A stretch of DNA of 64,000 bases from Candidatus Paceibacter sp. Lineage in GTDB: Bacteria; Patescibacteriota; Patescibacteriia; DYGC01. The stretch is from assembly GCA_020724925.1 (NCBI GenBank), contig DYGC01000002.1, forward strand, positions 2,201 through 66,200, written 5' to 3'. Position 1 is the stretch's first letter. Every line of letters begins with the position of its first letter. The notes under the pieces were generated by a model. It ran no database searches and had not been told where the DNA came from. It saw only the letters and a list, made by a program, of their open reading frames with translations. Below, piece after piece: positions 7,002-53,959 of this stretch. A program made the translations under genes and the position numbers.

Positions 7002-7060
7002 GATAGACGGGTAAGATTAATTTTGTTATAATTTAATTGTTATTAAATAATGATAAATTT

Positions 7061-15147: not shown

Positions 15148-15202
15148 CCTGTGGATAACCCAGCAAAATTTTACCTTGATTTTATATTAAATATGCTATA
15201 AT
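15148..15202 (+). promoter_or_regulatory. 55-nt promoter module: CCTGTGGATAAC block plus extended -10 TGCTATAAT (copy 1 of 3)
   Basis: CCTGTGGATAACCCAGCAAAATTTTACC...TGCTATAAT. TGTGGATAA (15150-15158) is the reverse complement of the DnaA-box consensus TTATCCACA. Distance from block start to TGCTATAAT is 46 nt, identical in the copies at 50613 and 52618. Sits 27 nt upstream of the 15229 start. Confidence 0.65.
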
Positions 15203-15228: not shown

Positions 15229-16332
15229 ATGATGCGTTATTTTTCCGTTTTTTGCACGGTCGCTTATATTTTTGTGGCTTGCCACAGTGACAGCAAGCGA
15301 GAAGTCCCGCCACGTGAAGATTGTGCCAATGATCTTGACGATGATGGCGATGGCTATGTCGATTGCGATGATTATGATTGTGCTTGGTCAAGCATTTGTC
15401 AGCCGGCAGTTGAGCTTTGCAATAATGGTCTTGACGATGATGGTGACCAAATGGTTGATTGTCAGGATTATGATTGTGCCGAAAATACTGTTTGCCAAAG
15501 CGTTGAACCGGTTTGTGGCAATGGTATTTTGGAGTATGGCGAGCAGTGCGACAGTTGGAATCTAGATGATTATGATTGTTGGTCCCTGGGTTATAGTGGC
15601 GGGACCTTGCATTGTACGGCCCAGTGTACTTTTACAGTGAGCTCTTGTTTTCAATGCAATAATGGCCAGTGTGAGATGGGCGAAAATGAAGTTAATTGTC
15701 CGGAAGACTGTGACGAGCCGTCCCTGTGTGGTAATGGCGTGATTGATTCTGGTGAAGAATGTGACGCCTCGAACTTACAGGGTCTAACGTGTCGCAACAT
15801 GGCGGCGGGTTATACGGGTGGAATTTTACGTTGCGCCAGTTATTGCCTGTATGATGTCAGCGCCTGTTATTATTGCGGTAATGGTCATTGCGAGTCCGGA
15901 GAAAATGTTACCAATTGTCTGGTCGATTGCCAGTATTTAAGAAATTGTGGCAACGATCTGTGTGAAGCCGGCGAAACTACCCTTAATTGTCCGAGTGATT
16001 GTCAGGGTAGCACGGGTAATTGTGGTAATGCCATCATTGATTCCGGAGAAAGCTGTGATGGTGCCAACCTGGGTGGCCAAAACTGCGTTTCTTTGGGCTA
16101 TGATTATGGCACCTTGTCTTGTGCCAGTAATTGCCAATTCAATTTGGCAAATTGCGTTAATACCAGTGGTGGGGAAATTTGTGATAATGGTATTGATGAT
16201 AATGGCAATCAGGCGATTGATTGTGCCGATGATGCTTGTTTTGATGATCCGGTTTGCCGTATTACGATGTGCGGCGATGGTTATTGCGACCCCGGAGAAA
16301 CACATAGCGATTGTCCGGCAGATTGTCCTTGA
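15229..16332 (+). CDS. secreted modular cysteine-rich repeat protein
   Basis: N-terminal signal/lipobox-like FVACHS. Three module types recur: CxNxLDDDGDxxVDCxDYDC (x3); CGNGxxxxGExCDxxNL...GYxGGxLxC (x3, resembles the myxococcal Cys-rich repeat); CGNGxCExGExxxNCxxDC (x4). Confidence 0.85.
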   Translation: MMRYFSVFCTVAYIFVACHSDSKREVPPREDCANDLDDDGDGYVDCDDYDCAWSSICQPAVELCNNGLDDDGDQMVDCQDYDCAENTVCQSVEPVCGNGILEYGEQCDSWNLDDYDCWSLGYSGGTLHCTAQCTFTVSSCFQCNNGQCEMGENEVNCPEDCDEPSLCGNGVIDSGEECDASNLQGLTCRNMAAGYTGGILRCASYCLYDVSACYYCGNGHCESGENVTNCLVDCQYLRNCGNDLCEAGETTLNCPSDCQGSTGNCGNAIIDSGESCDGANLGGQNCVSLGYDYGTLSCASNCQFNLANCVNTSGGEICDNGIDDNGNQAIDCADDACFDDPVCRITMCGDGYCDPGETHSDCPADCP

Positions 16333-30980: not shown

Positions 30981-32759
30981 ATGCGGACGAATTTTTGGAA
31001 AAAATTTTTTCGCGGTGGAGCGTTGACCTTTTTGTTGGTCAGCGTTTTTTTGTTTTTACCGCAAGCTGGTCAAGCTGATGAAACAAGCGAATGGCAAATC
31101 ACAGATTATCAGGTTTTAATTAAGCCAATTGCTAATGATTATAAGATTAGGGTGACGGAAAAAATCAATGGTGATTTTTATACTTTGCATCATGGGATTT
31201 ATCGGTACATGCCGGTCTTCATGAAAGATACCGCCTTTACGCAAGCACGTTTATTGGTGAATGATGTTAAGGTTACCATTGATAGTGGTTTCAGTCATCC
31301 TTACACCTACAGCGATAATGGACAAATTTATTTAAAAATTGGTGATCCGGATGCTACTTTTTCCGGTCCGCGTTTATATAATATTGATTACACGATTGTT
31401 AACGGTGGTTGGCGTTATTTTGAGGACAAACAAGAAGCGGAAATTTATTGGAACGCGGTTGGGACTGATTGGCCGGTTAATATTGAAAAAGTTTCAGTAA
31501 TTTATGATTTTAGTGAATGGGCTAATTTCAACTTGGCCGAAGCCCCGTCCGCTTGCTATACCGGCGTTCATGGGGCCACGGGAACTGATTGTACTTTACG
31601 AGTGGATGGACAAAAATTGCTTGTGGAAAGTACACGTTTGCTAACTCCAGGGGAAGGTTTGACAGTCGCGGTGGCCGTCCCTTTGCATTTGGTGCCACGT
31701 CCGAGTACTTGGGAAGCGATGATTTTTTGGATCAAAGGCAATGGTTTAGCCTTTATTCCATATTTGTGGCTTTTAGCAATGATTTATGTTTGGTTTAAGT
31801 GGGGGAAAGATAAAAAAGACGAGCGGTCTTTAGTGGTGGAATATACTGCTGTTGATCAATTACCTCCAGCTACGATGTATCAAGTGTTAAAACAACGTAA
31901 TAATAAAGATTATTTAACCGCGGAAATTATCTATTTGGCCACGCGCAAACACATTAAAATTGAAAAAACTGAGAAAACCGGATTTTTTGGAGGGAAAAGC
32001 GATGATTACGCCATTGTATTGCTAAATAAAAATTATCTGACAGATCAGTCTTTAGCCGGTTATCAAGTGATGATTTTAGATTTATTGTTTCATCATAACC
32101 CGGAAAGATTTGTTTTATCTGAAGTGAAAAATGTGATGCGGGCCACGCCAACTTATTATCAAAAACAGTTTTCCGCTATTCAAAAAGAAATTAATCGTGA
32201 AGTTAAAGACGGGCAATATTTTGTTTTAACTCCCAATGTTTCATTGTTTATTACGATTGGCTTTTTGGCAACCCTTTGGTTTAGCATGGCCTTTGCCTCT
32301 GTCATGAATGAATATTTGATTCCTTTGTATTTGATTAATTTGATGATAGTTTCGGTTTTGGTATTTTTGATTGGCTTTTTTGGCATGGCCAAATATACGG
32401 ATAAAGGTTTGGATGCTCGTTGGAAATTGCGGGGCTTGGAAATGTATTTAAAAACCGCCGAAGCCGAGCGTTTTAAGTTTGGTGAGTTGACTGATTTGTT
32501 TGAAAAATTATTGCCTTACGCCATTGCGATTGGTTTATTAAAAAAATGGTTGAAAATTATGGGAGAAATCTACAAAACTCCTCCGGAATGGTATAATGAT
32601 AAGGATTTTGCCACGATGGGCATGGCCGGTTTGGCCGGTTCCCTGAATGATATGGGCAACAGCATTAGTCGTGCCATGTCAGATGCTCGTTCTTCCGGTT
32701 CCAGTGGGGGCGGATCGTCCGGCGGCGGTGGTGGCGGCGGCGGGGGCGGTGGTTGGTAG
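30981..32759 (+). CDS. DUF2207 domain membrane protein
   Basis: Signal peptide, extracellular beta-rich domain (YWNAVGTDWPVNIEKVSV), TM helices, AEAERFKFGELTDLFEKLLPYAIA block, and a Gly-rich tail SGGGSSGGGGGGGGGGGW, characteristic of DUF2207. Confidence 0.8.
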   Translation: MRTNFWKKFFRGGALTFLLVSVFLFLPQAGQADETSEWQITDYQVLIKPIANDYKIRVTEKINGDFYTLHHGIYRYMPVFMKDTAFTQARLLVNDVKVTIDSGFSHPYTYSDNGQIYLKIGDPDATFSGPRLYNIDYTIVNGGWRYFEDKQEAEIYWNAVGTDWPVNIEKVSVIYDFSEWANFNLAEAPSACYTGVHGATGTDCTLRVDGQKLLVESTRLLTPGEGLTVAVAVPLHLVPRPSTWEAMIFWIKGNGLAFIPYLWLLAMIYVWFKWGKDKKDERSLVVEYTAVDQLPPATMYQVLKQRNNKDYLTAEIIYLATRKHIKIEKTEKTGFFGGKSDDYAIVLLNKNYLTDQSLAGYQVMILDLLFHHNPERFVLSEVKNVMRATPTYYQKQFSAIQKEINREVKDGQYFVLTPNVSLFITIGFLATLWFSMAFASVMNEYLIPLYLINLMIVSVLVFLIGFFGMAKYTDKGLDARWKLRGLEMYLKTAEAERFKFGELTDLFEKLLPYAIAIGLLKKWLKIMGEIYKTPPEWYNDKDFATMGMAGLAGSLNDMGNSISRAMSDARSSGSSGGGSSGGGGGGGGGGGW

Positions 32760-32885: not shown

Positions 32886-35501
32886 ATGCGAATAAAAAAA
32901 CAAATCGTGCTCACCTTTCTCTCCCTGCTGGGGCTTTTTGCGTTTTTCAATGTGCTACCGGCACGGGCTGAGGATGACAGTAATGCTTGGCGTATTAATG
33001 ATTATCAGGTTTATGTGAGGCCAATCGCCAACAGTTATGCCGTTTCCGTTCAAGAAAATTTACAAGTGACGTTCACTGAAGAAAGCCGTGGTATTATTCG
33101 GGATATTCCTTATAATGAAGCTCCGAGTGAATGGGAGCAAGCACCTTTGTATTATGAATCAGTGAGTGTTACTGATTTTGACGATAATCCTTTGACTAAT
33201 ATTTATTATCATGAATATGATGCTTTTCATATTCGCGTCGGCGATGCTGATCGTTATTTGTTAGGACCACAAAATTATCGTTTGAATTTGGAAATTGGCA
33301 ATGGAATGTGGCGTTATTTTAATGATCACGCGGAAATTTATTGGAACGCTATCGGTCATAATTGGCCAACTTATATTGATAAAAGTCAGGTAGTGATTGA
33401 TTTGAGTTCCTGGGATTTAGATTGGTCGCGCGTGCAAGCGATTTGTTATACTGGTGAGCAGGGAAGTAAAGAACAGGATTGTTTAGCACAAATTGATGAT
33501 AAGCAAAAAAAGATTACGATTAGCACTTTGCGAACTTTATGGCCATCCGAAGGTTTAACTTTTGCGGTCAGCGTTCCTTTAGAAAGTGTACCCAAACCAC
33601 CGCCTTTTGAATTGGTGCCCAATGCCAATATGCAGGTGGATAATCTGAAAGTTTTGTTTAAACCGTTACCTGATAGTCAAACCGTTCAAGTAACGGAAAG
33701 TTTTAATGCTTTGTATCGTAACACTCGAGAAAGATTATTGTTTCAATTGTATAATTATTGGGATGAGGAATTATTAAAAAGAAATTTTTTATATTTGGAT
33801 AATGGTGACAGTAATCATCACATTGCTTTTGGTAAGCCCGGTGATTATGGTTACTATGACGCGGCCGGTTTAATTTATTTGAATCACGATGATTTGAAAG
33901 ATCCGCGTTATGATTTTTCTTATGATATTTTGCACGGTGCTTGGTATTGGAAAGACCAGATGGCGACTTTTGCTTGGGAATTGGTGAATTATGATTGGAT
34001 GGCTTTGGTGAATGATGCCCGCGTGACCGTTGATTTAAGTGATTTTAATATTCCGGATGAGCAAATTCATGCCAGTTGCTATGTTTCCGCTTATACTGAA
34101 TATGATCCTTGCGTGATTGAAAAATCACAGGGACAATTAGATATTTCCCTTAATCGACGGTTAATGCCGGAAGAAATTTTAATGATTTATGTTAGTGTCC
34201 CGGAACAATATATTCCTCAAAAAATTTCTTTTGCTTTATGGTTGAAAATTTATTGGCCGTTAGTTTTGTTAATTGTGTTATCTTTGTTTTCGTTATGGGG
34301 CGTGTGGCAGTGGCGAGCTTCTTTGCGTAAAGAGCGAGCAGTCTTGGCGCAATATGATAGTGTTGATAAATTGCCGCCTGGTTTAACCGCTTTGATTAAT
34401 AGTCATGGTTGGAAGAATGATTACTGGACAGCCGAAATTATTTATTTTGCTACCCGTAAATATATTAAAATTGAAAATCGTGCTAAAACCGAAGAAGCGT
34501 CCGATCAGTATGTTCTAAAATTATTAAAAAGTGATTATAAAAATGATGTCGGTTTATTGCAATATCAAAAAGACTTGCTGACTTTGTTGTTTGAAGGAAA
34601 AAGTGAGTTTGATTTATCCACGGTAAAGGCTTGGTCCAGTGTCAAAAAAGAACAAATGTATACGGCTTTTGTGAAACTAAGGACAGCCGCTAGCAACGAT
34701 TTGGTGGAAAAAGAATATTTTAAAAAATCTTATGCCGGCGGATTTTCAGTTTTTTTGTCAGTGATTTTGATGTTCGCGGCATTTTGGTTTTTAGTGCCGT
34801 GGTGGCAAGGCTTTTTCTCCATGCCTTTTAAACAGTATTTTATCAGTCCTTATACTTATTTTGGCTTATTGTTGCCGATGGTGCTCGTTTATTTTCGATT
34901 AAAAGTATTTAAGATTAAAGTTTGGCCGATGGTAATTTTGGTGTTATTGATAGTGACTGCCATGACAGCCTTGCCTTTCTTGCCACCAAATTATGATTTG
35001 TTGTTGTTTGGAACCTTGATATTTTTAGCTTTGTTTGTTCTTTTTGCGATTCCCTATTGGTTAATTTTTACAGACAAGGGTTTGGATGGATATTGGCATA
35101 ATTTAGGTTTGATTGATTATCTGAAATCCGCCGAAGCAGAACGTTTCAAGTTTGGAGAGTTGACTGATTTGTTTGAAAAATTGCTGCCTTATGCGATTGC
35201 TTTTGGATTTTTAGGAAAATGGGCGGCAATTATGAAGGAAATGTACAAACAACCGCCGGAATGGCTGAATGATAAAAGAGGTTTGGTGAAATCAATGACC
35301 GCTTTGAATGGTTTGTCATTGGCAATGAATGGTTTGAACAAAGCCTTGCAAGCCGGTCACGCGGCCGGAGTGGCAAGTCGTTACGGAAGCGGGGGCACGT
35401 CTTATCGCAGCGGCGGATCAAGCGGTGGTTTCTCGGGATTTTCCGGGGGCGGAGGGTTTTCCGGTGGCGGTAGCGGCGGCGGTGGTGGCAGTCGTTGGTG
35501 A
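32886..35501 (+). CDS. DUF2207 domain membrane protein with duplicated ectodomain
   Basis: Two successive copies of the N-terminal ectodomain (YWNAIGHNWPTYIDKSQVVIDLS and a second, more divergent one around WELVNYDWMALVNDARVTVDLS). Same AEAERFKFGELTDLFEKLLPYAIA block and a Gly-rich tail ending SRW. Confidence 0.8.
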   Translation: MRIKKQIVLTFLSLLGLFAFFNVLPARAEDDSNAWRINDYQVYVRPIANSYAVSVQENLQVTFTEESRGIIRDIPYNEAPSEWEQAPLYYESVSVTDFDDNPLTNIYYHEYDAFHIRVGDADRYLLGPQNYRLNLEIGNGMWRYFNDHAEIYWNAIGHNWPTYIDKSQVVIDLSSWDLDWSRVQAICYTGEQGSKEQDCLAQIDDKQKKITISTLRTLWPSEGLTFAVSVPLESVPKPPPFELVPNANMQVDNLKVLFKPLPDSQTVQVTESFNALYRNTRERLLFQLYNYWDEELLKRNFLYLDNGDSNHHIAFGKPGDYGYYDAAGLIYLNHDDLKDPRYDFSYDILHGAWYWKDQMATFAWELVNYDWMALVNDARVTVDLSDFNIPDEQIHASCYVSAYTEYDPCVIEKSQGQLDISLNRRLMPEEILMIYVSVPEQYIPQKISFALWLKIYWPLVLLIVLSLFSLWGVWQWRASLRKERAVLAQYDSVDKLPPGLTALINSHGWKNDYWTAEIIYFATRKYIKIENRAKTEEASDQYVLKLLKSDYKNDVGLLQYQKDLLTLLFEGKSEFDLSTVKAWSSVKKEQMYTAFVKLRTAASNDLVEKEYFKKSYAGGFSVFLSVILMFAAFWFLVPWWQGFFSMPFKQYFISPYTYFGLLLPMVLVYFRLKVFKIKVWPMVILVLLIVTAMTALPFLPPNYDLLLFGTLIFLALFVLFAIPYWLIFTDKGLDGYWHNLGLIDYLKSAEAERFKFGELTDLFEKLLPYAIAFGFLGKWAAIMKEMYKQPPEWLNDKRGLVKSMTALNGLSLAMNGLNKALQAGHAAGVASRYGSGGTSYRSGGSSGGFSGFSGGGGFSGGGSGGGGGSRW

Positions 35502-35502
35502 T

Positions 35503-35668
35503 GGCGTCATTGCGAGCGACAGCGAAGCAATCACGTGGGGTATTGATTCACGAGGTTGCTTCGGTGCTATGCACCTCGCAATGACGAGCGGCGTTCACGT
35601 TTTGGTGGACCGTCGCCTCGCAATGACGAGCGGCGTTCACGTTTTGGTGGACCGTCGCCTCGCAATGG
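35503..35668. repeat. GTCATTGCGAG repeat cluster including a 42-nt tandem duplication
   Basis: GTCATTGCGAGCGACAGCGAAGCAATCACGTG, then the inverted unit TTGCTTCGGTGCTATGCACCTCGCAATGAC. The 42-nt unit CCTCGCAATGACGAGCGGCGTTCACGTTTTGGTGGACCGTCG is at 35574-35615 and 35616-35657 (identical), with a partial third copy to 35668. Confidence 0.85.
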
Positions 35669-43520: not shown

Positions 43521-43787
43521 ATGTCCTTGGTCCTAGGAGTATTATTTTATTTTTCATTCGCATTAAATATTTTTTATTTAAAAGTTTTTGCTTATATTTC
43601 TTCGGGGGTTTTTTTGCTATTTGCAGTTGAATTAGGAAATAGTGCTATTAAAATTATTGGTGTTCAACAAAAACTTGGAAAAATAACAAGATTCTTAATT
43701 TATCTCATGTCTTTATTAATTATTATAATGGTGTTTGTTAGTATGATTTCTGTGGCTATTCTGTTGGCTCAAATCAGAGAAAATTAG
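43521..43787 (+). CDS. small membrane protein (3 predicted TM helices)
   Basis: MSLVLGVLFYFSFALNIFYLKVFAYISSGVFLLFAV...LIYLMSLLIIIMVFVSMISVAILL. Track start 43491 is TTG; first ATG at 43521. Lies 75 nt upstream of the RM gene. Confidence 0.5.
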   Translation: MSLVLGVLFYFSFALNIFYLKVFAYISSGVFLLFAVELGNSAIKIIGVQQKLGKITRFLIYLMSLLIIIMVFVSMISVAILLAQIREN

Positions 43788-43862
43788 TTTGAATTTACTG
43801 ATATTAAGTGTTAAATTAGAAGTAAGATTTTGATTAGTATTTTTTCATAAAATTAAACATAT

Positions 43863-46859
43863 ATGGCATCAATTTTTAAAAACAGTAAAATCAAAGAGAA
43901 TTTGGAAAGATTTGAAGTGCCTGATTTGAAGGATAAAATTAAGTTGGTTAAAGAGTGGTATGATTATTATCACAAAGGCACTTTAAAGCAAGAAAAAGAG
44001 ATCAGTGTAGCACCTCGCTACAGTCAGTTTTTGATTGATTTGTTGGGATATAAAGGCAAACCGGCGGATGGCTATACTTTGGAAAGCGAACCAACAACCG
44101 AAGATAAAGGCGGCCAACGCCCTGATCTTTTATTGGGATATTTAAGTGGTGAGGATCGTAATATTTCAGCTGTGGTAGAACTTAAGGGCGCTGGGATTGC
44201 TTTGGACCGTCCGCAACAACGCGAAGGCAATATGAGTCCGATTCAGCAAGCTTTTAAATACAAAACGCAATATTCCAGTTGTCCCTTTGTGATTGCTTCC
44301 AATTTTTATGAAATTCGTTTGTTTCAAGACAATCAATTGGATTATGAAATTTGGAATTTGGATGATTTGGTTAATCCGGAAGATAATTATTTTCAGTTTC
44401 GTAAATTTTATTATTTACTTTGCGCGGATAATTTTGTGGCCAAGGGTGGTAAAAGTAAAACCGAGGAATTGTTAAGTGATATTAGAGTGGAAGCGGAGAG
44501 TATCAGTAAAAAGTTTTATAAAGAATATCATGAATTGAGAACCAATCTTTTACGTTCTTTGTATAAAGAAAATGAAAGTGTTCGTAGCAATATTGATTTT
44601 GGCATTGAAAAAGCTCAGAAAATTGTGGATAGAGTGGTTTTTGTGTGTTTTTGTGAAGATACCGGACTTTTGCCGGAGCATACTCTAAAACGAGTTTTGG
44701 AAAAATCCAAAGATAGTTTCGGGTCTTTGTGGAATAATTTACAAGGATTTTTTGAGGAAATTGACAGTGGCAGTGAAAAATTGGAAATCCCCAAAGGCTA
44801 TAATGGCGGTTTGTTTGCTCAGGATACGGATTTAATGGCTTTGAAAGTGAAAGATGATGTTTTGAGTAAACTTTTGGATTTGGGGAAATATGATTTTTCC
44901 GAAGATTTAACGGTTAATATTTTGGGGCATATTTTTGAACAATCAATTTCTGATTTGGAGGAAATTAAGCAGAAAGTGCAAAAGGATACGACGGTTAAAA
45001 GTAAACGTAAAAAAGATGGTATTTTTTATACGCCGGATTATATTGTGGATTATATTGTAAAAAATTCTTTGGGTAAGTATTTGGAAGAAAAAGAAGAACA
45101 ATTGAAAAATGAATACAAATTGAAAGGTGATATTTCCGATAAGACCTATGCCAAGCGTGAACGTGAAGCCTATGAAAAATACCAAAAGTTTTTACAGGAA
45201 GTCAGAGTTTTGGATCCGGCCTGCGGTTCCGGGGCGTTTTTGGTAAAAGTGTTTGATTATTTATTGGCGGAAAATCAACGCGTTGGTGCGATTTTGGGTA
45301 ATTTGTTCGGGACTGATGCTTATAATAAGCACATTCTAAAGAATAATATTTACGGAGTTGATTTGAATCAGGAGTCAGTGGAAATTACCAAGCTTTCTTT
45401 GTGGTTAAAAACCGCACAAAAGAATAAAAAGTTGACAGCTCTGGATGATAACATCAAATGCGGTAATAGCTTGATTGATGATCCGGCGGTGGCAGGAGAT
45501 AAGGCATTCAATTGGAATGCAGAATTTAAAGAAATAATGGATCAGGGGGGATTTGATGTGATTGTGGGGAATCCGCCGTATGTGAACATTGCTAATATAC
45601 CAAATAAGATAGAAAGGCAATATTATCAAAATAATTATAAAACAGTTAAAAATAAAAGCGATCTTTATAGTATCTTTTTAGAAAAGGCTACATACTTATT
45701 AAAACCAAATGGTTTATTGAATTTTATTTTTTCTAATTCTTGGCTGGGAACTGATAGTTTTAGTGAGTTTAGAAAGTTTCTTGTTGAAGAAAAATCTGTT
45801 TTGAGTTTGGTGAAATTACCACCTGGTGTATTTGAGGATGCTGTTGTGACAGCGGTTATTATATTGCTTTGCAATTCTATTCCAAAAGGAAATCATAAAG
45901 TTAATTTATTTGAATATAATGTGAATAAGATTGAAAAAATGAAACATAGTTTAAGTTATGAAAGGATTAAGAGTACAATAAATTATACTTTTTCCTTTGA
46001 GCCAGCGATTTGTTTTAAGACAGAAACTGTAAAATTGGGCGATATTGTGGAATTTTCATTAGGGATAAAAACAAGTGATGATAAACGTTTTATTTTAGAT
46101 TATAGAAAAGATGAGAATTGTTATCCCGTATTACGAGGAAAAGACATTTTTCGATATTATGTAGGAAAACCTAAAAAATATATTTGGTACCAGCCAAAGT
46201 TAATGATGGAAAAGGTTGGTGCGGGACCAAGGTGTTTGGAGGATTTTTTGAAACCTAAAATCTTCGTTCAAGATGTTGCCCAGAAAATAATTGCTTGTTT
46301 CGATGAGCATAAATATTTATCAACAGATACATTGTCGTTGGTTTATAATGTCGATAAAAAATTTAATTTAAAATATATTTTGGCATTATTGAATTCCCAT
46401 TTCGTAAATAAATGGTTCAAAAACAATTTCCCAGAAGGATTACATATAAAAATAAATCAATTAAAACAAATTCCAATTCCAAATATACCAACCGAACAGC
46501 AGGAAGTATTTGCTTTTAGATCTGATTTGATTACAAATGCGTCGGAAGAACTGCAAAATAAATTAAGTAAATTTTCTAGTCGTCTGCAATCAAGCTTCAA
46601 TTTGGCAAAAATATCTAATAAATTGGAAAATTTTTACGAATTGGATTTTGTTGATTTTATTAAAGAGCTAAAAAAGCAAAAAGTTGAAATATCCTTAAAA
46701 GATCAGGACGAATGGGAAGATTATTTCAATCAATATAAAAAGGAAATTTTAGATTTGAAATCTCAAATCGATAAAACCGACAAAGAAATTGATCAAATGG
46801 TTTACGCTTTATATAATTTAACGGATAAGGAGATCGGCGTGGTTGAGGGGGGATATTAA
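43863..46859 (+). CDS. Type IIG restriction-modification enzyme (fused PD-(D/E)xK nuclease, N6-adenine methyltransferase and target-recognition domain)
   Basis: N-terminal RPDLLLGY...AVVELKGAG...QQAFKY (D...ExK plus QxxxY nuclease motifs). MTase motif I VLDPACGSGAFLV and motif IV VIVGNPPYV. A C-terminal ~380 aa TRD-like region with a coiled tail. Confidence 0.85.
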   Translation: MASIFKNSKIKENLERFEVPDLKDKIKLVKEWYDYYHKGTLKQEKEISVAPRYSQFLIDLLGYKGKPADGYTLESEPTTEDKGGQRPDLLLGYLSGEDRNISAVVELKGAGIALDRPQQREGNMSPIQQAFKYKTQYSSCPFVIASNFYEIRLFQDNQLDYEIWNLDDLVNPEDNYFQFRKFYYLLCADNFVAKGGKSKTEELLSDIRVEAESISKKFYKEYHELRTNLLRSLYKENESVRSNIDFGIEKAQKIVDRVVFVCFCEDTGLLPEHTLKRVLEKSKDSFGSLWNNLQGFFEEIDSGSEKLEIPKGYNGGLFAQDTDLMALKVKDDVLSKLLDLGKYDFSEDLTVNILGHIFEQSISDLEEIKQKVQKDTTVKSKRKKDGIFYTPDYIVDYIVKNSLGKYLEEKEEQLKNEYKLKGDISDKTYAKREREAYEKYQKFLQEVRVLDPACGSGAFLVKVFDYLLAENQRVGAILGNLFGTDAYNKHILKNNIYGVDLNQESVEITKLSLWLKTAQKNKKLTALDDNIKCGNSLIDDPAVAGDKAFNWNAEFKEIMDQGGFDVIVGNPPYVNIANIPNKIERQYYQNNYKTVKNKSDLYSIFLEKATYLLKPNGLLNFIFSNSWLGTDSFSEFRKFLVEEKSVLSLVKLPPGVFEDAVVTAVIILLCNSIPKGNHKVNLFEYNVNKIEKMKHSLSYERIKSTINYTFSFEPAICFKTETVKLGDIVEFSLGIKTSDDKRFILDYRKDENCYPVLRGKDIFRYYVGKPKKYIWYQPKLMMEKVGAGPRCLEDFLKPKIFVQDVAQKIIACFDEHKYLSTDTLSLVYNVDKKFNLKYILALLNSHFVNKWFKNNFPEGLHIKINQLKQIPIPNIPTEQQEVFAFRSDLITNASEELQNKLSKFSSRLQSSFNLAKISNKLENFYELDFVDFIKELKKQKVEISLKDQDEWEDYFNQYKKEILDLKSQIDKTDKEIDQMVYALYNLTDKEIGVVEGGY

Positions 46860-46875
46860 GAAATAAAGAAAAAGT

Positions 46876-47592
46876 ATGGTTGAGTTATATGATTTATTAA
46901 TAGAAATAAGCGACGCCGCTGATAAGTTATTGAAAGAACAATCTCCGCCTCAAAAGGAGAAAGAAGCTTTGCTTTTATTTGCAATTGGTAAAACAGAGAA
47001 AACTTCTAAGGCAATTTCGTTTTTATGCCAAAGAGGTTTTGGACAAGATGCAGCGATGCTAAGTCGCAGTTTGTTTGAGTTAGCGTTAACAGTAGATTAT
47101 ATAATGTCTGACAAAAGTGGTTATTTAGTAAAAAGATTTTTTGCCTATGATTGGATTCAACGTAAAGAAATGTATGATTATTTAAAAAATTATGATAACC
47201 AATATAAAAATATAAAGAAAGAGGCGGAAATTGCTCAAAAAAAATATAAATATAATAAATATAGGGGGTGGTCTAAGATTAGTATTTCTAGAATGGCTGA
47301 AAAATGCGGTTGGGGGAATATGTATAAAACTATTTATAAAATATTATGTGCATTTACTCATGCTAATACAAGATCTTTTAATGATTATTTAAAAATGGAT
47401 GAAGCGAATAATTTTTTAGTTGATTCTGGCCCCAATACAAGTTTAATTGATGAAACATTAGTTTTGTCAGCATATAGTTATTTACAGGTATTGTATTATT
47501 TTGATAGTTATTTTAATAAAGATTATAAAAGTTATTTGAAGAAAATAGAAGAAAAAATAATAGAAATATGTTCAATAAAAGGATTGAATTAA
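46876..47592 (+). CDS. hypothetical protein, DUF5677-like (tentative)
   Basis: All-helical. GQDAAMLSRSLFELALTVDYI and ILCAFTHAN blocks resemble DUF5677 family members as I remember them. Starts 16 nt after the RM stop. Confidence 0.45.
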   Translation: MVELYDLLIEISDAADKLLKEQSPPQKEKEALLLFAIGKTEKTSKAISFLCQRGFGQDAAMLSRSLFELALTVDYIMSDKSGYLVKRFFAYDWIQRKEMYDYLKNYDNQYKNIKKEAEIAQKKYKYNKYRGWSKISISRMAEKCGWGNMYKTIYKILCAFTHANTRSFNDYLKMDEANNFLVDSGPNTSLIDETLVLSAYSYLQVLYYFDSYFNKDYKSYLKKIEEKIIEICSIKGLN

Positions 47593-47611
47593 ATAATAAA
47601 TATAATTTATT

Positions 47612-49081
47612 ATGAGTGACGAATTGCAACCGGTTAATGGAGAAGAATTTAAAATAGATATAAATAATTTGGCTTCTATTTTCAAAAAACACATTACCAT
47701 AGAAAATAATAATAAAATATTATTTTCCGGGAAGTTTGGAATAGGTAAGACATATTTCCTGAATAAGTTTTTTGAAACTGAAAATAATGAATATGAAGTT
47801 TTTCATTTGTATCCTGTGAATTATCAAATTTTTTCCAATGAAGATATAATAGAATTTTTAAAATATGATATTTTGGTTGAATTATTAAAAAATCATAAGG
47901 ATATTTTTAATCAAAATGATTATTCTAGTATGATAGATTATGAACAGTTATTATATTTATGGGGGAAAGAAAATGTGACAAATATTATAAAAAAAGCGTC
48001 CTCTTATTTTGGAAAGTTGGGGCGACCGTTAAATGATATTATTGTATTGGTAGAAGGTTTTTTAGAATTTAAAAGAAAAATGGAATTAGGGGATTTAGGT
48101 ATAGTAAATGATTTCTTAGATGATATAAAGAAGAGGAAAGTTCTAGAGACTGATTTAATTAGTGACTTAATAAAAAGCAAATTACAAGAAATAAAAAATG
48201 GTAAAAATGTTGTATTGATTTTAGATGATTTGGAGAGAATGGATCCGGAGCATATTTTTAGAATTTTAAATGTTTTTTCTGCTTGTGCAGATAAAGACGG
48301 TAAAAACAAATTTGGTTTTGATAAAATTATATTGGTGGCTGATTACAATAATTTAAAAAGTATATTCCATCATAGATATGGTGAGGGTACGGATTCTTGT
48401 GGTTATTTCGACAAGTTCTTTAGTATTGAGGTCTTTGAGTTTACAAATAATAATGTGGTAATTAATATGGTGGATGATATTATTTCCAAATTCATTATAT
48501 GGGATAAAAGAAAAAATTTGAAAACTGATTCTGATATAGGGATATTACGTTTTATTTTGTCTGACTTTCTTATTAATGGCATTAGTCTTTCAGGAAAGGA
48601 TCAAATCAATTTGAGGCAGTTGTTAAAAGGTATTAAATTTTCGCTTGGATATAAGTTTAATGAGGATATTTTAAATCGTGTATCCTTTCATACTTTGATA
48701 ACTCTACAATATATTAATTTTAGTATATTTATATTAATATCAATTGCTGGCGGACAAAAAAAAGAGTTATTGGTATTATTGGAAAAAATTAAGCAGTATT
48801 TAGTTCATAAAAATAAACTTATTAAAAACCTTGGCGTTCACAGACAAGCAGCAAATTTGTTGTTGCAGGGGGTGTTAGGTAGAGATGCCTTAACTGAATT
48901 TTTTGATAAAAACTGGAATAATTATAATATAAAAGGGAAAAATGGATATATAGAAAGTGTTGTTTACGGTAATGGTAACGGCAAGGATAATGGTAAAACT
49001 CTTGAGGCTCGATTGTATTATGATTTGCTAATTGAATATGTAGAAAATGATTATTATTTAAAAAATAATAATTATAATTAG
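47612..49081 (+). CDS. KAP family P-loop NTPase
   Basis: Walker A FSGKFGIGKTYFLNKFF, Walker B VVLILDDLERMDPEHIFRILNVF, then a hydrophobic insert (LITLQYINFSIFILISIAGG) as in KAP NTPases. Starts 19 nt after the previous gene. Confidence 0.8.
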   Translation: MSDELQPVNGEEFKIDINNLASIFKKHITIENNNKILFSGKFGIGKTYFLNKFFETENNEYEVFHLYPVNYQIFSNEDIIEFLKYDILVELLKNHKDIFNQNDYSSMIDYEQLLYLWGKENVTNIIKKASSYFGKLGRPLNDIIVLVEGFLEFKRKMELGDLGIVNDFLDDIKKRKVLETDLISDLIKSKLQEIKNGKNVVLILDDLERMDPEHIFRILNVFSACADKDGKNKFGFDKIILVADYNNLKSIFHHRYGEGTDSCGYFDKFFSIEVFEFTNNNVVINMVDDIISKFIIWDKRKNLKTDSDIGILRFILSDFLINGISLSGKDQINLRQLLKGIKFSLGYKFNEDILNRVSFHTLITLQYINFSIFILISIAGGQKKELLVLLEKIKQYLVHKNKLIKNLGVHRQAANLLLQGVLGRDALTEFFDKNWNNYNIKGKNGYIESVVYGNGNGKDNGKTLEARLYYDLLIEYVENDYYLKNNNYN

Positions 49082-49082
49082 T

Positions 49083-49118
49083 AAAAAAAAAGAACAGTAA
49101 TTAAACTGTTCTTTTTTT
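49083..49118. terminator. bidirectional hairpin terminator between convergent genes
   Basis: AAAAAAAA-AGAACAGT-AATTAA-ACTGTTCT-TTTTTT. Serves the KAP operon (+) and the 49131-49343 gene (-). Confidence 0.7.
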
Positions 49119-49130
49119 ACTGTTATGTTT

Positions 49131-49343
49131 TTATTGTTTGTGACATGGTTTACAACAATAGTAACATCCATCAGCGGTATTGTATCCTCTTTCTTTTGCT
49201 TTACTAATTGCATCATAGCAATTAGCGAATTTTCCTAAATAAATAGCATTGGGCGATAATGGAAGATGTCCACAATCAGATTTGTGAACTTCGTGATCGC
49301 CATTAGGTTGAGGATTTATATTTATATAATAATCAAATAACAT
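49131..49343 (-). CDS. small Cys/His-rich protein (putative metal-binding), unknown function
   Basis: 70 aa: GDHEVHKSDCGHLP ... CYDAISKAKERGYNTADGCYYCCKPCH. Recalls a widespread family of small proteins of unknown function with the HEVH..C.....C..C..CH pattern. Confidence 0.55.
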   Translation of the reverse strand: MLFDYYININPQPNGDHEVHKSDCGHLPLSPNAIYLGKFANCYDAISKAKERGYNTADGCYYCCKPCHKQ

Positions 49344-49636
49344 TTGTTTTTGGTTATTTTTTTTAATTTGACTTCCCCTAATTCCGTAAATGTGCTATTA
49401 TATTTTTATCAAGAAAAACAATAGTACATTTCTAACTCGACCTTTAATGTTAGTCGGAGTTAGAGGCAAAAATATGGTTAAAAACCATAATTTTTGTTTT
49501 TCGTCTTTTGTATTATATCATGATATGTAGTATTTAACAAGTGGCGGCTAGCGCAACATCTAGTGTTTCGGCGTGGCGTTTAAAACATTTTTTGTGTTAT
49601 AATAATATTAATATAATTATTAAAATCAAATTTTTT

Positions 49637-50185
49637 ATGGAAACCCTCAAACTCATCCTTTCTCTCTGGCCGGTTTATTTATTTTTGATTATTTTTGTTA
49701 TTGGTAAATTGGCTTTGGATTATTTTTTCAAAGACAATAAAAAAGAACACAATCTTTCCGGTTATGAAAAGAAAACGCATTTATTTGATACAAGTACAGA
49801 ATTTAATTTATATAAAATATTGCTTGAACTTTTTGGCGAGCAATATTTTATTTTTCCCCAGATAAATTACAGTCATCTTATTAAAGTTAAAAGTGCCGAA
49901 TGGAAAGAATCCCAAGCATATCGTAGTCGTATTGATCGAAAATCCGCTGATTTTGTGCTTTGTGATAAAGCTCAAATCTTGCCTTTGTTGGTGATTGAAC
50001 TTGATGGTAGCGCGCATAATATTCAAAAGAAACAAGATCGAGATCAATTTATTGATGAATTGTTGAATCAGATTAATTTGTCAATTTTACATTTAAAAAA
50101 CGATGATCTAGATCGTGAATTTGTTAAAAATGAAATTTTGAAAAAATTGGGTAATAACGAAACTGTTATATCTAATCAAACTTAA
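49637..50185 (+). CDS. DUF2726 domain protein (PD-(D/E)xK-like) with N-terminal TM anchor
   Basis: METLKLILSLWPVYLFLIIFVIG (TM), then RIDRKSADFVLCDKAQILPLLVIELDGSAHN...KQDRDQFIDELLNQINLSILHL, the DUF2726 D...ExD/K core. Track start 49541 is GTG; ATG at 49637. Confidence 0.7.
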   Translation: METLKLILSLWPVYLFLIIFVIGKLALDYFFKDNKKEHNLSGYEKKTHLFDTSTEFNLYKILLELFGEQYFIFPQINYSHLIKVKSAEWKESQAYRSRIDRKSADFVLCDKAQILPLLVIELDGSAHNIQKKQDRDQFIDELLNQINLSILHLKNDDLDREFVKNEILKKLGNNETVISNQT

Positions 50186-50499: not shown

Positions 50500-50515
50500 T
50501 AAGTCTGTGGATAGC

Positions 50516-50598
50516 GGTGTAATGGGGGATCGTGAAAAGGTGCAATGGGTTATCGTGAAAAGGTGTAATGGGTCATCCTGAAACAAGTTCAGGATGAC
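50516..50598. repeat. three 23-nt tandem repeats ending in a GTCATCCTGAA hairpin
   Basis: GGTGTAATGGGGGATCGTGAAAA (50516-50538), GGTGCAATGGGTTATCGTGAAAA (50539-50561), GGTGTAATGGGTCATCCTGAAAC (50562-50584). The last unit forms GTCATCCTGAA-ACAA-TTCAGGATGAC (50572-50598). Confidence 0.8.
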
Positions 50599-50612: not shown

Positions 50613-50667
50613 CCTGTGGATAACTCGCGAAAACTTTACGTTAATTTAACGTTCGATTTGCTATAAT
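50613..50667 (+). promoter_or_regulatory. 55-nt promoter module with DnaA-box-like 9-mer (copy 2 of 3)
   Basis: CCTGTGGATAACTCGCGAAAACTTTACG...TGCTATAAT. TGTGGATAA at 50615-50623. 46 nt from block start to TGCTATAAT (50659). Confidence 0.65.
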
Positions 50668-50686
50668 AACGTTAATTATTTTTATC

Positions 50687-50714
50687 GTAGGGGCGTATGG
50701 CTATACGCCCCTAC
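50687..50714 (+). repeat. GTAGGGGCG-family hairpin inside the predicted 5' UTR of the Bro-N gene
   Basis: GTAGGGGCGTAT-GGCT-ATACGCCCCTAC. Lies between the -10 element (50662-50667) and the ATG at 50750. Confidence 0.75.
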
Positions 50715-50749: not shown

Positions 50750-51559
50750 ATGGATGCCAAATCCCTATCCTTTTTTAATGGTGCCAAAATTCGTCGTGTT
50801 TGGGACGAGAAAAAACAAAAGTGGTATTTTTCGGTGGTAGATGTGGTTGGGGTTTTGACGGATAGTGTTAGATGCCGGAAGTACTGGAGTGATTTAAAGG
50901 TGAAATTAGCAGAGGAAGGTTTTCAGTTGTCCGAAAAAATCGGACAACTGAAATTTATGGCTAATGATGGTAAATATTACACTGGTGATGCGGCTGATGT
51001 AGAAACCTTATTGCGTTTGATTCAATCAATTCCTTCTAAAAAAGCCGAACCATTTAAATTATGGTTGGCCAAAGTCGGTCGAGAAAGATTAGAAGAAATG
51101 GCTGATCCGGAAAAAGCAATCATTCGTAGTCAGGAGTATTGGCGGAAAATGGGACGAAGTGAGAAGTGGATTAAAAGAAGATTGGGCGGGCAGGAAGTGC
51201 GTAACAAATTAACCGAATATTGGCGAACGCATGAGGTTGATGAAGGCAAAGATTTTGCTTTATTGAGTAATATTATTCACAAAGAATGGTCGGATTTAAC
51301 AATCACTGAACATAAAGAGTTGAAAAACTTGGATAAACAAAATTTGCGTGATCACATGTCAGAAGTGGAACTGTTTTTTACGGCGTTTGCGGAAATGGCC
51401 ACCGAACAAATTGCTGAAAGTATGGATGCGACAGGGCTGGAAGAGAACAAAATCCCTGCCAAGCAAGGTGGTGCAATTGCCAAACATGCGCGTTGCGAGC
51501 TGGAAGAGAAAACCAAAAAATCAGTGATTAGTGGGAAGAATTTTTTGAGGAAAATTTAG
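50750..51559 (+). CDS. Bro-N domain protein (DinD / phage antirepressor-like)
   Basis: KIRRVWDEKKQKWYFSVVDVVGVLTDS...RKYWSDLKVKL, LLRLIQSIPSKKAEPFKLWLAKVGRERLEEMADPE and the C-terminal KQGGAIAKHARCELEEKTKKSVIS match the common Bro-N/DinD-like family architecture. Confidence 0.72.
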   Translation: MDAKSLSFFNGAKIRRVWDEKKQKWYFSVVDVVGVLTDSVRCRKYWSDLKVKLAEEGFQLSEKIGQLKFMANDGKYYTGDAADVETLLRLIQSIPSKKAEPFKLWLAKVGRERLEEMADPEKAIIRSQEYWRKMGRSEKWIKRRLGGQEVRNKLTEYWRTHEVDEGKDFALLSNIIHKEWSDLTITEHKELKNLDKQNLRDHMSEVELFFTAFAEMATEQIAESMDATGLEENKIPAKQGGAIAKHARCELEEKTKKSVISGKNFLRKI

Positions 51560-52617: not shown

Positions 52618-52672
52618 CCTGTGGATAACTCGCGAAAAGTTTATGCTAGATTTATGGTCAGTGTGCTATAAT
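52618..52672 (+). promoter_or_regulatory. 55-nt promoter module with DnaA-box-like 9-mer (copy 3 of 3)
   Basis: CCTGTGGATAACTCGCGAAAAGTTTATG...TGCTATAAT. TGTGGATAA at 52620-52628. 46 nt to TGCTATAAT (52664). Confidence 0.65.
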
Positions 52673-52890
52673 TGTTTTGAACTTTGATTCGTCTGTGAGT
52701 CCTTCCGCGAGAGCGCTTTAGCGCGAAGCGGTTGTAGGGATAGACTATGATTTTAGTGTCACAGTCCATCAGTTTTTTCAGTGTAATCCCGGTTCAAGAC
52801 TTTTATTGTCCAAAAACCTAACACCACCTTGTTTGACTTTCAGACATTGTTTTGTTACAATTTTTGTACTTAAATCTTATTCCCAAAGTT

Positions 52891-53574
52891 ATGCGTCAAC
52901 CATATTTTCAATTGATTAAAGAATTGCGCTTGCAAAAAAATCTTTCCCAAGCGGAAATCGCCAAGCGAATTGGTGTTTCTCGTCAAGCTTATTTAAGCTT
53001 TGAACAAGGAAAAACCGAATTTAATTTATCGGAAATGATTAAAATCGCGGATATTTTGGGAATTTCCCTGGATGAAATCAAGCACGGCGTCAAGCCGGAC
53101 TATGCCAAATACAAACAAATGATTTTAGCTTTTTTGCGCAGTAATCCGAACGTTAAAATCACTAAAACGAAATTGGCGAAATTGTTGTATTTGGCTGATT
53201 TCGCCTGGTTTTATAATAATTTGCAAAGCATGAGCGGCATGGCTTATCGTAAAATTCAATACGGACCGGTGCCGGATAGCTATTTTCGTGCTTTGGATGA
53301 ACTTTTTGAAGCCGGTTCCATTGACATTGATAACACCAGTCGGGATGGTGTTTTTTTAATTTCCGAAACCGTGACCGGTGCTCGGGAAAAACTTACGTCC
53401 TTAAATGAAAGTGAATATTCTTTGATCAAAAAAATCGCCAAGAAATGGCACAATAAACGGACGCAGGAAATCGTAAAATTCACTCATGATCAATTGCCTT
53501 ATTCTTTGTGTGATGAGAATGAAATCATTCCGTATAGTTTAATCACTCAGGAAGATCCGGAAAATGTCTATTAA
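52891..53574 (+). CDS. XRE-family HTH fused to Panacea (DUF4065, SocA-like) domain: PanA-type antitoxin candidate
   Basis: HTH LSQAEIAKRIGVSRQAYLSFEQG, then LAKLLYLADFAWFY...YRKIQYGPVPDSY, characteristic of DUF4065. ATG at 52891; the track TTG at 52852 is less likely. Confidence 0.78.
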   Translation: MRQPYFQLIKELRLQKNLSQAEIAKRIGVSRQAYLSFEQGKTEFNLSEMIKIADILGISLDEIKHGVKPDYAKYKQMILAFLRSNPNVKITKTKLAKLLYLADFAWFYNNLQSMSGMAYRKIQYGPVPDSYFRALDELFEAGSIDIDNTSRDGVFLISETVTGAREKLTSLNESEYSLIKKIAKKWHNKRTQEIVKFTHDQLPYSLCDENEIIPYSLITQEDPENVY

Positions 53575-53959
53575 ACATTCGGTTAGTCTGGAAACCTTTG
53601 CCGAGCGGCATTACTCGAAAAGTTTTGCGAAAAAATATGGCCGGGCTTGGGATATAACCATTGAGGCGGTTTTGTGGGAGCTGCAAGATTTTGATTTGTT
53701 GTTAACTCGTTCAATCGCCGAGATTATTATCGCGAAAGATAAGATTAAAATTTGCAAAGTGGAATTTAAAGTCGCCGGCACGCCGTATTCGCGCCACGCT
53801 TCCGGAAATCGTTGTATCGTGGCTTGGCATCAAGATTGCGCTTTGGTAAAAATTTTATTGATTTATCATAAAAATGATTTATCGTCCAAAAACGAAACCG
53901 CCGCTTGGAAAAATTTGATTAAAGAAAATTATTTGGAATACCGCGATTTGATAAAGTGA
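53564..53959 (+). CDS. candidate toxin partner, RelE/HigB(Gp49)-like C-terminal pattern (tentative)
   Basis: Overlaps the antitoxin gene by 11 nt (ATG inside ...GAAAATGTCTATTAA). KVEFKVAGTPYSRHASGNRCIVAWHQDCALVKILLIYHKNDLSSKNETAAWKNLIKE resembles the beta-sheet core plus the ...ILL.YHK... tail of RelE-superfamily toxins. Confidence 0.5.
   Translation: MSIKHSVSLETFAERHYSKSFAKKYGRAWDITIEAVLWELQDFDLLLTRSIAEIIIAKDKIKICKVEFKVAGTPYSRHASGNRCIVAWHQDCALVKILLIYHKNDLSSKNETAAWKNLIKENYLEYRDLIK

Follow-up and report, generated by a model that had tools for sequence, protein, structure and literature searches.

A putative DnaA-responsive promoter module, conserved at orthologous genes and partly portable, in one clade of Patescibacteria

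Introduction

The replication initiator DnaA is an established activator and repressor of transcription, with nucleotide-dependent effects at nrdAB and dnaA (PMC8203912; PMC12371093), and both activation and repression by DnaA have been documented, depending on its nucleotide state and concentration (PMC8203912). In the DnaA-regulated promoters of Escherichia coli (dnaA, nrdAB, mioC and guaB) and in the regulons of Bacillus subtilis and Caulobacter, a consensus DnaA box lies beside a sigma-70-type promoter. The number and position of the boxes in these promoters are idiosyncratic, and the boxes often occur in pairs or clusters and often overlap the core promoter. A 64-kb piece of a Patescibacteria chromosome (the window, by which the whole stretch analysed is meant) likewise carries consensus boxes beside probable sigma-70-type promoters, but here one box, at one distance (about -55) and in one orientation, belongs to a stereotyped 55-nt unit, the module, which stands before unrelated genes and recurs across species. 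The logic is presumably the same as in the known systems, namely the coupling of expression to the level or nucleotide state of the initiator (PMC8203912; PMC12371093), and a replication gene (ssb) is among the targets of the module too.

Three further systems invite comparison. Putative mobile promoters are families of 50-100 nt with at least 80% identity, which precede non-homologous genes within and between genomes; more than 1000 genomes are known to contain them (Matus-Garcia, Nijveen and van Passel 2012, PMC3488235). The module behaves in the same way, but it is also kept at orthologous positions over long divergence and carries a recognisable regulator site, which is more than recent copying. 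In class I promoters (CAP at -61.5 in lac) and promoters with an upstream (UP) element, the protein site ends, on its downstream side, near -50, the C-terminal domain of the RNA polymerase alpha subunit (alpha-CTD) docks at about -43 and the helical face is strict; the layout of the module is similar, although the activator envisaged for it is DnaA domain IV acting as a monomer, where CAP acts as a dimer, and its near-perfect extended -10 element may need no help. MerR-type promoters share with the module a -35-like hexamer (TTTACG or TTTACA) placed beyond the optimal 17 bp from TATAAT, but their spacer is 19-20 bp instead of 21 bp, and the module has no dyad operator and has its conserved protein site upstream of the hexamers.

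Next to nothing is known of how Patescibacteria (candidate phyla radiation, CPR) control transcription, and full-text searches found no literature on promoter classes, start-site maps or DnaA boxes in Patescibacteria/CPR, or on DnaA boxes at rpsF or ssb. Transcriptional control by DnaA and mobile promoters are each known already; what was not found described is a stereotyped DnaA-box promoter class with a single box and fixed geometry that is conserved throughout a patescibacterial clade and includes rpsF-ssb-rpsR.

A 55-nt Module with Fixed Geometry

The module occurs three times in the window, each time in an intergenic region, on the plus strand and co-oriented. Copy 1 (15148-15202) begins with the 12-mer CCTGTGGATAAC (15148-15159), which contains the DnaA box TGTGGATAA (15150-15158), and continues with the A/T tract AAAATTTTA (15165-15173) and the extended -10 element TGCTATAAT (15194-15202). 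The same 12-mer and the same -10 element delimit copy 2 (50613-50667; 12-mer 50613-50624, box 50615-50623, tract AAAACTTTA 50630-50638, -10 element 50659-50667) and copy 3 (52618-52672; 12-mer 52618-52629, box 52620-52628, tract AAAAGTTTA 52635-52643, -10 element 52664-52672). Common to all three is CCTGTGGATAAC-N5-AAAA-N-TTTA, followed by TGCTATAAT 46 nt from the first C. Re-reading of the sequence bears out the positions and the 46-nt offset that the initial annotation gave for each copy. Over the full module, however, copy 1 agrees with copy 2 at just 42 of 55 positions; copies 2 and 3 agree at 44 (80%).

The recurrence is far beyond chance. Three exact 12-mers stand against about 0.008 expected from length only (128,000 positions/4^12), and a 27-mer searched with up to three mismatches has two matches in the window, compared with 0.00 in 100 shuffles. 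A repeat finder recovered the 55-nt family at 76/100/80% identity, and a two-block weight-matrix scan of the window found no weaker copies besides the three. Other near-matches to the 12-mer in the window lack the remainder of the module.

Related or pattern-matching DNA (loci L002-L036) was collected by exact-pattern scans of species-genome and metagenome collections and by retrieval of orthologous loci by protein, using ribosomal protein S6 and EpmA, and all retrieved DNA was scanned with weight matrices. The family comprises 17 non-redundant members in about 200 kb of related DNA. All 17 members are intergenic and co-oriented with the next gene, and in several the module begins only a few nt past the point where the preceding gene ends in a stop codon or terminator. 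The family is clearly separated by a matrix derived from 10 members: in 283 kb scanned, all hits above 22 bits scored at least 63.6 bits, and three more divergent members, found later, scored 27-34 bits. The module is thus a discrete class.

The genes behind the module are diverse. The ribosomal and DNA-replication operon rpsF-ssb-rpsR carries it in six species, with S6 identity down to 49% (L002, L019/L025, L022, L028 and L031; L025 comes from the same sample as the window contig), and Cys-rich lipoprotein genes divergent from epmA carry it in three, with proteins 52-67% identical (window, L033 and L032). Genes with a Bro-N domain are preceded by the module at three loci (window, L012/L006 and L002; copies at L012:4315, L006:5460 (TCTGTGGATAAC) and L002:4149 (GATGTGGGTAAC)), and the XRE-Panacea pair at two (window and L012). 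Single members precede a lipoprotein gene (L006:821), the gene of a secreted protein of 491 aa that by eye resembles an M23 peptidase (L010), a GGDEF gene (L034), the region ahead of rpoB (L036) and a non-coding stretch of about 110 nt that ends in a strong terminator (L013).

Three of these loci have peculiarities of their own. At L013 (3845-3957, minus strand), about 110 nt with no open reading frame come after the module and end in a strong intrinsic terminator (AAAGGCCG...CGGCCTTTTCTTTT; z = -2.9); the stretch has no Rfam match and is a candidate small RNA expressed from a DnaA-box module. L036 contains a tandem duplication of about 134 nt (1-58 and 135-192) that includes the module and its upstream flank, with the -10 element kept only in the second copy. 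At L034 (1196-1240), a terminator-like hairpin (GGAACTCCTGCAAATGCAGGAGTTTTTT) lies within about 15 nt after the module, ahead of the GGDEF gene, and may act as an attenuator or terminate the upstream epmA.

Several pattern matches were rejected as members. The cyanobacterial locus L003 is instead a tandem cluster of DnaA boxes reading CTGTGGATAAC, the match in the Saccharibacteria locus L005 sits in the dnaA-dnaN spacer (oriC), and L007 has several adjacent DnaA-box-like sites. L008 and L016-L018 differ in geometry and belong to another lineage, as does L009, in which the box abuts a TTGACA -35 element; L004 (Caulobacteraceae) and L020 are probably chance matches. Viral contigs scanned with the module pattern gave no match, and hence no sign of a phage origin. 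An Rfam search over the window and 16 related loci returned only two tRNAs, elsewhere in the window, so that neither the module nor its leaders belong to a known RNA family.

Anatomy of the Module

In the alignment of the 17 members, numbered from the first C of the module, positions 1-12 form a DnaA box of the high-affinity type, with the core TGTGGATAA and the preferred flanks CC..C, and are followed by a variable stretch (13-17). Positions 18-26 are an A-tract/T-tract, RAAAnTTTA; positions 29-46 are an A/T-rich spacer in which a few T/A positions are fixed, at intervals of about one helical turn; and positions 47-55 are the extended -10 element, TGnTATAAT. Invariant or nearly invariant columns are TGTGG(A)TAA of the box, AAA and TTTA of the tract, five spacer positions and the -10 element. 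The box is the most invariant part of the module, its 9-mer core being more conserved than its flanks; the exact 9-mer is present in all three window copies and in 16/17 members, the exception being TGTGGGTAA at Bro-N of L002. The distance from the box to TGnTATAAT is equally rigid (38 nt in 16/17 members, 39 nt in the other).

The 18-nt spacer, described as unrelated among the copies in the initial annotation, proves to be constrained: positions 34, 35, 37, 41 and 45 are invariant in the 17 members, and sub-types are common to different genomes. The sub-type TTAATTTAAC.. is found in the rpsF and Bro-N copies, CTAGATTTATGGTCAGTG in copy 3, L012 and L006:821, TTATTTTCACCTTCGATT in L010 and L013, and TTGATTTTATATT.A.TA in the Cys-rich lipoprotein set.

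Evidence for a Promoter

The positions of the -10 element are invariant or at least 90% conserved, and the rpsF copies read (G/A)TGTATAAT. The same signal, TGnTAtAAT without a -35 element, precedes many other genes of the window and looks like the general promoter signal of the organism. In rpsF of all six species, an in-frame ATG follows TATAAT by exactly 4 nt, while the N-terminal extension of S6 that it opens varies in sequence and length. This constant distance is the best indirect pointer to a start site: it suggests a genuine -10 element and a leaderless rpsF mRNA that would begin at that ATG. Elsewhere in the window a TTG start at 7037 lies 4 nt after the -10 element TGTTATAAT at 7024 (7024-7039), and leaderless mRNAs may be common in the lineage.

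A scan for the canonical sigma-70 consensus did not call the modules, because they have no -35 element 16-18 bp upstream of the -10. The nearest -35-like hexamer, TTTAC(G/A) at positions 23-28, lies 21 bp from the -10 element and is thus too distant for a normal -35. The 55-nt unit is, on balance, probably a complete and self-contained promoter of a special class in one clade of Patescibacteria.

Identity of the DnaA Box

The equation of the 9-mer with the DnaA-box consensus, made in the initial annotation, is exact, as TGTGGATAA is the reverse complement of TTATCCACA, and it can be extended to the flanks. The 12-mer CCTGTGGATAAC equals box R1 of E. coli oriC with its flanks at 12/12 positions, and R4 (CTGTGGATAAC) has 11 nt in common with it. 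The same 12-mer is found at the dnaA/oriC region of a patescibacterium: in the Saccharibacteria metagenome-assembled genome (MAG) represented by L005, it occurs both in the dnaA-dnaN spacer and in the spacer of the dnaA promoter, where the boxes read CCTGTGGATAAC(T/G). In that dnaA promoter (L005 2069-2100), CCTGTGGATAAC stands between TTGACG and TGGTATATT; judged by its sequence this is the classical autorepression layout, overlapping the core promoter as in many known DnaA promoters. The modules differ from E. coli oriC in having neither a box cluster, nor a DNA-unwinding element, nor a DnaA-trio, and in being followed by a promoter. A DnaA-trio or basal unwinding system was rejected by eye, there being no 3-nt periodic TAG/TAA after the box.

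Exact boxes in the clade are tied to the rest of the module. The clade DNA examined (203,608 bases) has 21 non-redundant exact copies of TGTGGATAA, of which 17 have a -10 element at the fixed offset (16 at 46 and one at 47) and 18 have RAAR-N-TTTA in place. This census is biased by the retrieval of most loci either for the pattern or as orthologs of module-bearing genes; the members in L034 and L036 lie at non-orthologous places, in DNA fetched for another reason. Only three exact boxes, all of them intragenic in the window, have neither feature.

This linkage bears on the idea that the boxes serve replication rather than transcription, either in DnaA titration or recycling (datA/DARS-like), or with copy 2 and three adjoining 23-bp repeats acting as origin for an integrated element that resembles a plasmid or phage. 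That scattered boxes of high affinity titrate DnaA is an established model (PMC12371093), and exact boxes are over-represented in the window (6 compared with about 0.5 expected from length). Copy 2, moreover, lies in a low-GC defence island and is preceded, at 50506-50583, by three tandem 23-bp repeats (GGTGTAATGGGTCATCGTGAAAA, 86% matches) of iteron-like appearance, with a near-DnaA box, TGTGGATAG, ahead of them. Titration, however, needs neither the fixed 46-nt link to a -10 element, which most of the boxes have, nor an orientation relative to genes. There are no box clusters at the modules, each of which has one exact box, no replication initiator (rep) gene is found nearby, and the 23-bp repeats, which stand beside copy 2 only, do not occur at the Bro-N orthologs of L012 and L002, where the module is retained. 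A role in replication control is therefore very improbable.

Conservation at Orthologous Promoters

Orthologous pairs of modules keep 44-53 of 55 bases, whereas the 55 nt upstream of them match at only 11-25 positions, which is background, in all but one closely related pair. Likewise, no conservation is left in the alignment to the left of the box. Because the module is kept while its upstream flanks are randomised, it is under selection, and purifying selection is shown across the orthologous promoters. Copy 1 lies between epmA, on the minus strand, and the Cys-rich lipoprotein gene, and its orthologs in L033 and L032 have the same geometry and stand ahead of homologous Cys-rich lipoproteins (the window protein is 52% identical to the 593-aa protein of L033, which occupies the same position, divergent from epmA).

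The initial annotation had offered two readings, a shared regulon signal and a portable promoter cassette. The former gains support from the conservation of the module at the orthologous promoters of rpsF, the Cys-rich lipoprotein and Bro-N and from the fixed context of the box; the latter gains support from the observations described in the next section. The two are not exclusive, and taken jointly they are partly supported.

Portability of the Module

Copy 3 begins 3 nt past the stop codon of a PD-(D/E)XK gene and lies upstream of a gene for an XRE-type helix-turn-helix (HTH)/SocA-Panacea antitoxin (52891-53574, plus strand) and its overlapping 131-aa partner (53564-53959), which together span 52891-53959. 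The module does stand upstream of this pair, as was noted before, but the view that it drives the pair needs qualifying, since the antitoxin gene has a canonical promoter of its own directly ahead of it, TTGACT-17-TACAAT (with TG), at 52833-52861 on the plus strand, which is conserved in L012 and L006. Copy 3, 219 nt upstream, is accordingly a second, polymorphic promoter. Between the stop codon of the PD-(D/E)XK gene and the XRE promoter, three states are found: nothing in L006, a 79-nt insert starting with the module in L012, and the module plus 121 nt in the window. Copy 3 is thus an insertion/deletion polymorphism. The additional 121 nt of the window (52680-52800, plus strand), which occur in neither L012 nor L006, have ends that pair (GAACU/GGUUC) and give one closed fold at -36.3 kcal/mol (z = -1.95); by their sequence they could be an insertion resembling a miniature inverted-repeat transposable element (MITE) or a small RNA driven by copy 3.

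The unit also moves, as is indicated by a second copy in L006. The module at L006:821 is identical to copy 3 at 53/55 positions, has unrelated flanks and begins 4 nt beyond a stop codon that ends an unrelated gene; the lipoprotein gene that follows it is likewise unrelated. Measured by the definition of putative mobile promoters (50-100 nt, at least 80% identity, non-homologous genes), the pairs copy 2/copy 3 and copy 3/L006:821 qualify and copy 1 falls below.

These observations raise the question of whether the family is only one strong promoter that was recently copied, with the box as a functionless passenger. Besides the absence of copy 3 from the orthologous site in L006 and its near-identical counterpart at an unrelated locus there, this explanation would account for the sharing of spacer sub-types by non-orthologous genes (TTAATTTAAC in rpsF and Bro-N) and for the presence of Bro-N with the module at two loci of one MAG, and it could appeal to the many genomes in which such families are documented. 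It is difficult to reconcile, however, with the box being the most invariant part of the module and with the retention of the module at the orthologous rpsF, Cys-rich lipoprotein and Bro-N promoters, whose proteins are 49-86% identical and whose flanks are randomised, because such retention in diverged species reflects long-term purifying selection and not recent copying. Propagation as the whole explanation is improbable.

A Possible Mode of Action

A DnaA-responsive, partly portable promoter class is the reading that we favour, and we regard it as somewhat better than evenly supported. In this model, transcription would start 5-7 nt past the -10 element, so that the A-tract would be centred near -43 and the box near -55 (+/-2). 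DnaA, bound through domain IV to the single box on a fixed helix face at about -55, would modulate RNA polymerase that is held by the extended -10 element. Help of the class I type would be favoured, with DnaA placed just upstream of an alpha-CTD docked on the A-tract, edge to edge like CAP at lac, and this CAP-like layout gives a slight lean to activation. Repression by DnaA-ATP spreading downstream from the box would be nearly as likely. In either case the expression of rpsF-ssb-rpsR, of surface proteins and of some mobile defence genes would be tied to the state of replication initiation, and the unit would occasionally be copied in front of new genes.

A number of points count against DnaA as the regulator. 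Well-studied DnaA-regulated promoters usually have two or more boxes (PMC11317965), and the module has one. An array of weak boxes in an 11-bp register across the promoter was rejected, since segments in that register match the box at just 3-4 of 9 positions (judged by eye in copy 2 and one rpsF copy). In the one natural variant of the box, TGTGGGTAA, the change falls on a position that the E. coli consensus TTWTNCACA treats as invariant. A preference of the DnaA of this clade for this particular box would follow by analogy from the general conservation of domain IV and from a different patescibacterial class. The spacer and the A-tract are also conserved, which DnaA alone does not explain. 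Lastly, an extended -10 element seems sufficient elsewhere in the genome, so that an activator seems unnecessary, which favours repression or another role.

Some of these points would be met if the same promoter had another reader, either a lineage-specific transcription factor or the alpha subunits acting at a UP element or curved-DNA enhancer, with the match to the DnaA box being incidental. The whole region from -62 to -17 is constrained, including RAAAnTTTA and the spacer T/A positions about one helical turn apart, and the box is single, unlike usual DnaA sites. In addition, both positions at which E. coli DnaA tolerates variation (W and N of TTWTNCACA) never vary in the 17 members, and the variation that exists gives no positive DnaA signature. 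On the other hand, an incidental match would have to include 12/12 identity with E. coli R1, and its agreement with the boxes at the patescibacterial dnaA/oriC region would then be a striking coincidence. The 9-mer core is also better conserved than the bases that flank it, and no candidate for an alternative factor was identified. We consider another reader rather unlikely, and the DnaA-responsive promoter class is retained.

A broader proposal is possible but more doubtful. In a clade with very small genomes, DnaA may have been recruited as a global transcription factor through a stereotyped promoter class, made up of a single box of the R1 type near -55, a bent A/T tract, a -35-like element out of register and an extended -10 element. 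This class would control rpsF-ssb-rpsR and surface, signalling and mobile defence genes and would spread as a copyable unit, and newly acquired genes would be plugged straight into the replication and growth signal. If the DnaA-responsive reading is right, a DnaA regulon would be defined by a fixed promoter architecture and not by scattered boxes; a minimal genome would reuse its replication initiator as a growth-state regulator of ribosome, replication, surface and defence genes; and the emerging genetics of Patescibacteria would gain a compact, probably regulated promoter. The module is also a clean natural case in which one regulatory unit combines conservation with mobility.

Two other identities of the conserved block were rejected by eye. 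A promoter of the extracytoplasmic function (ECF) type (GATAAC ... CGT) would have a 14-nt spacing, and CGT is not conserved among the copies; a 28-bp Xer/dif-like site is not supported because the arms are not inverted repeats.

Genes and Repeats around the Modules

The window has rpoB/rpoC at its left end and contains aminoacyl-tRNA synthetase genes and epmA. A look-up of its RpoC, aimed at the rpoB promoter and at a longer contig, returned no record. Nearly all of its genes are on the plus strand, the GC content is 39% and the GC skew is about +0.2 throughout. Its DNA is also present on the Joint Genome Institute (JGI) contig Ga0246236_1000287, and among the genomes of the species collection 'Patescibacteria group bacterium CTOTU18523' is the nearest.

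The genes that the initial annotation placed behind the three copies were confirmed by Pfam for Bro-N and for HTH_3 with SocA_Panacea, while the Cys-rich protein has a weak match to the Cys-repeat family DUF4215. The Cys-rich lipoprotein gene (15229-16332, plus strand) starts with an ATG 26 nt past the -10 element of copy 1, preceded by GGAAAGGTAGGTGG. The Bro-N gene (50750-51559, plus strand) has an 82-nt leader with a hairpin at 50685-50710 that resembles repetitive extragenic palindromic (REP) elements, and L022 retains a Bro-N remnant at the corresponding position.

Copies 2 and 3 belong to a defence island of low GC content (about 42-54 kb) with genes for DUF3800, an MmeI-type restriction-modification enzyme, DUF5677, a KAP NTPase, DUF2726, Bro-N, a PD-(D/E)XK nuclease and the XRE-Panacea pair. 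Its part at 42315-50185 has 27-34% GC and holds the genes from DUF3800 to DUF2726, among them that of the MmeI-type enzyme (998 aa), and tandem GGTTGACAA repeats lie on its left (42203-42257). One unit of the 23-bp repeat found just upstream of copy 2 recurs together with the hairpin GTCATCCTGAAACAAGTTCAGGATGAC in L022 (8748-8800), beside the remnant of the Bro-N C-terminus, and these repeats could be iterons or operators of a Bro-N-associated element. Where the window has the 23-bp repeats, L012 (3950-4300) has seven different palindromic hairpins with loops of the CAAATTG type before its Bro-N module.

The REP-like hairpin family, GTAGGGGCGAATGACAATTCGCCCTT, has six copies in both orientations (15091, 19045, 19161, 40369, 40466 and 50685), of which that at 50685 is an insertion into the 5' leader of Bro-N that the orthologs lack. 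Another hairpin family (TTGCTTCG..stem..CTCGCAATGAC) is found at the ends of consecutive genes (29528, 32771, 35556 and 38635), and a perfect 42-bp tandem duplication lies at 35574-35657. Two adjacent genes at 30981-32759 and 32886-35501, the second of which has DUF2207 domains, share long direct repeats that have diverged (158 nt at 80%, 85 nt at 71% and 79 nt at 76%), which suggests that they are paralogues.

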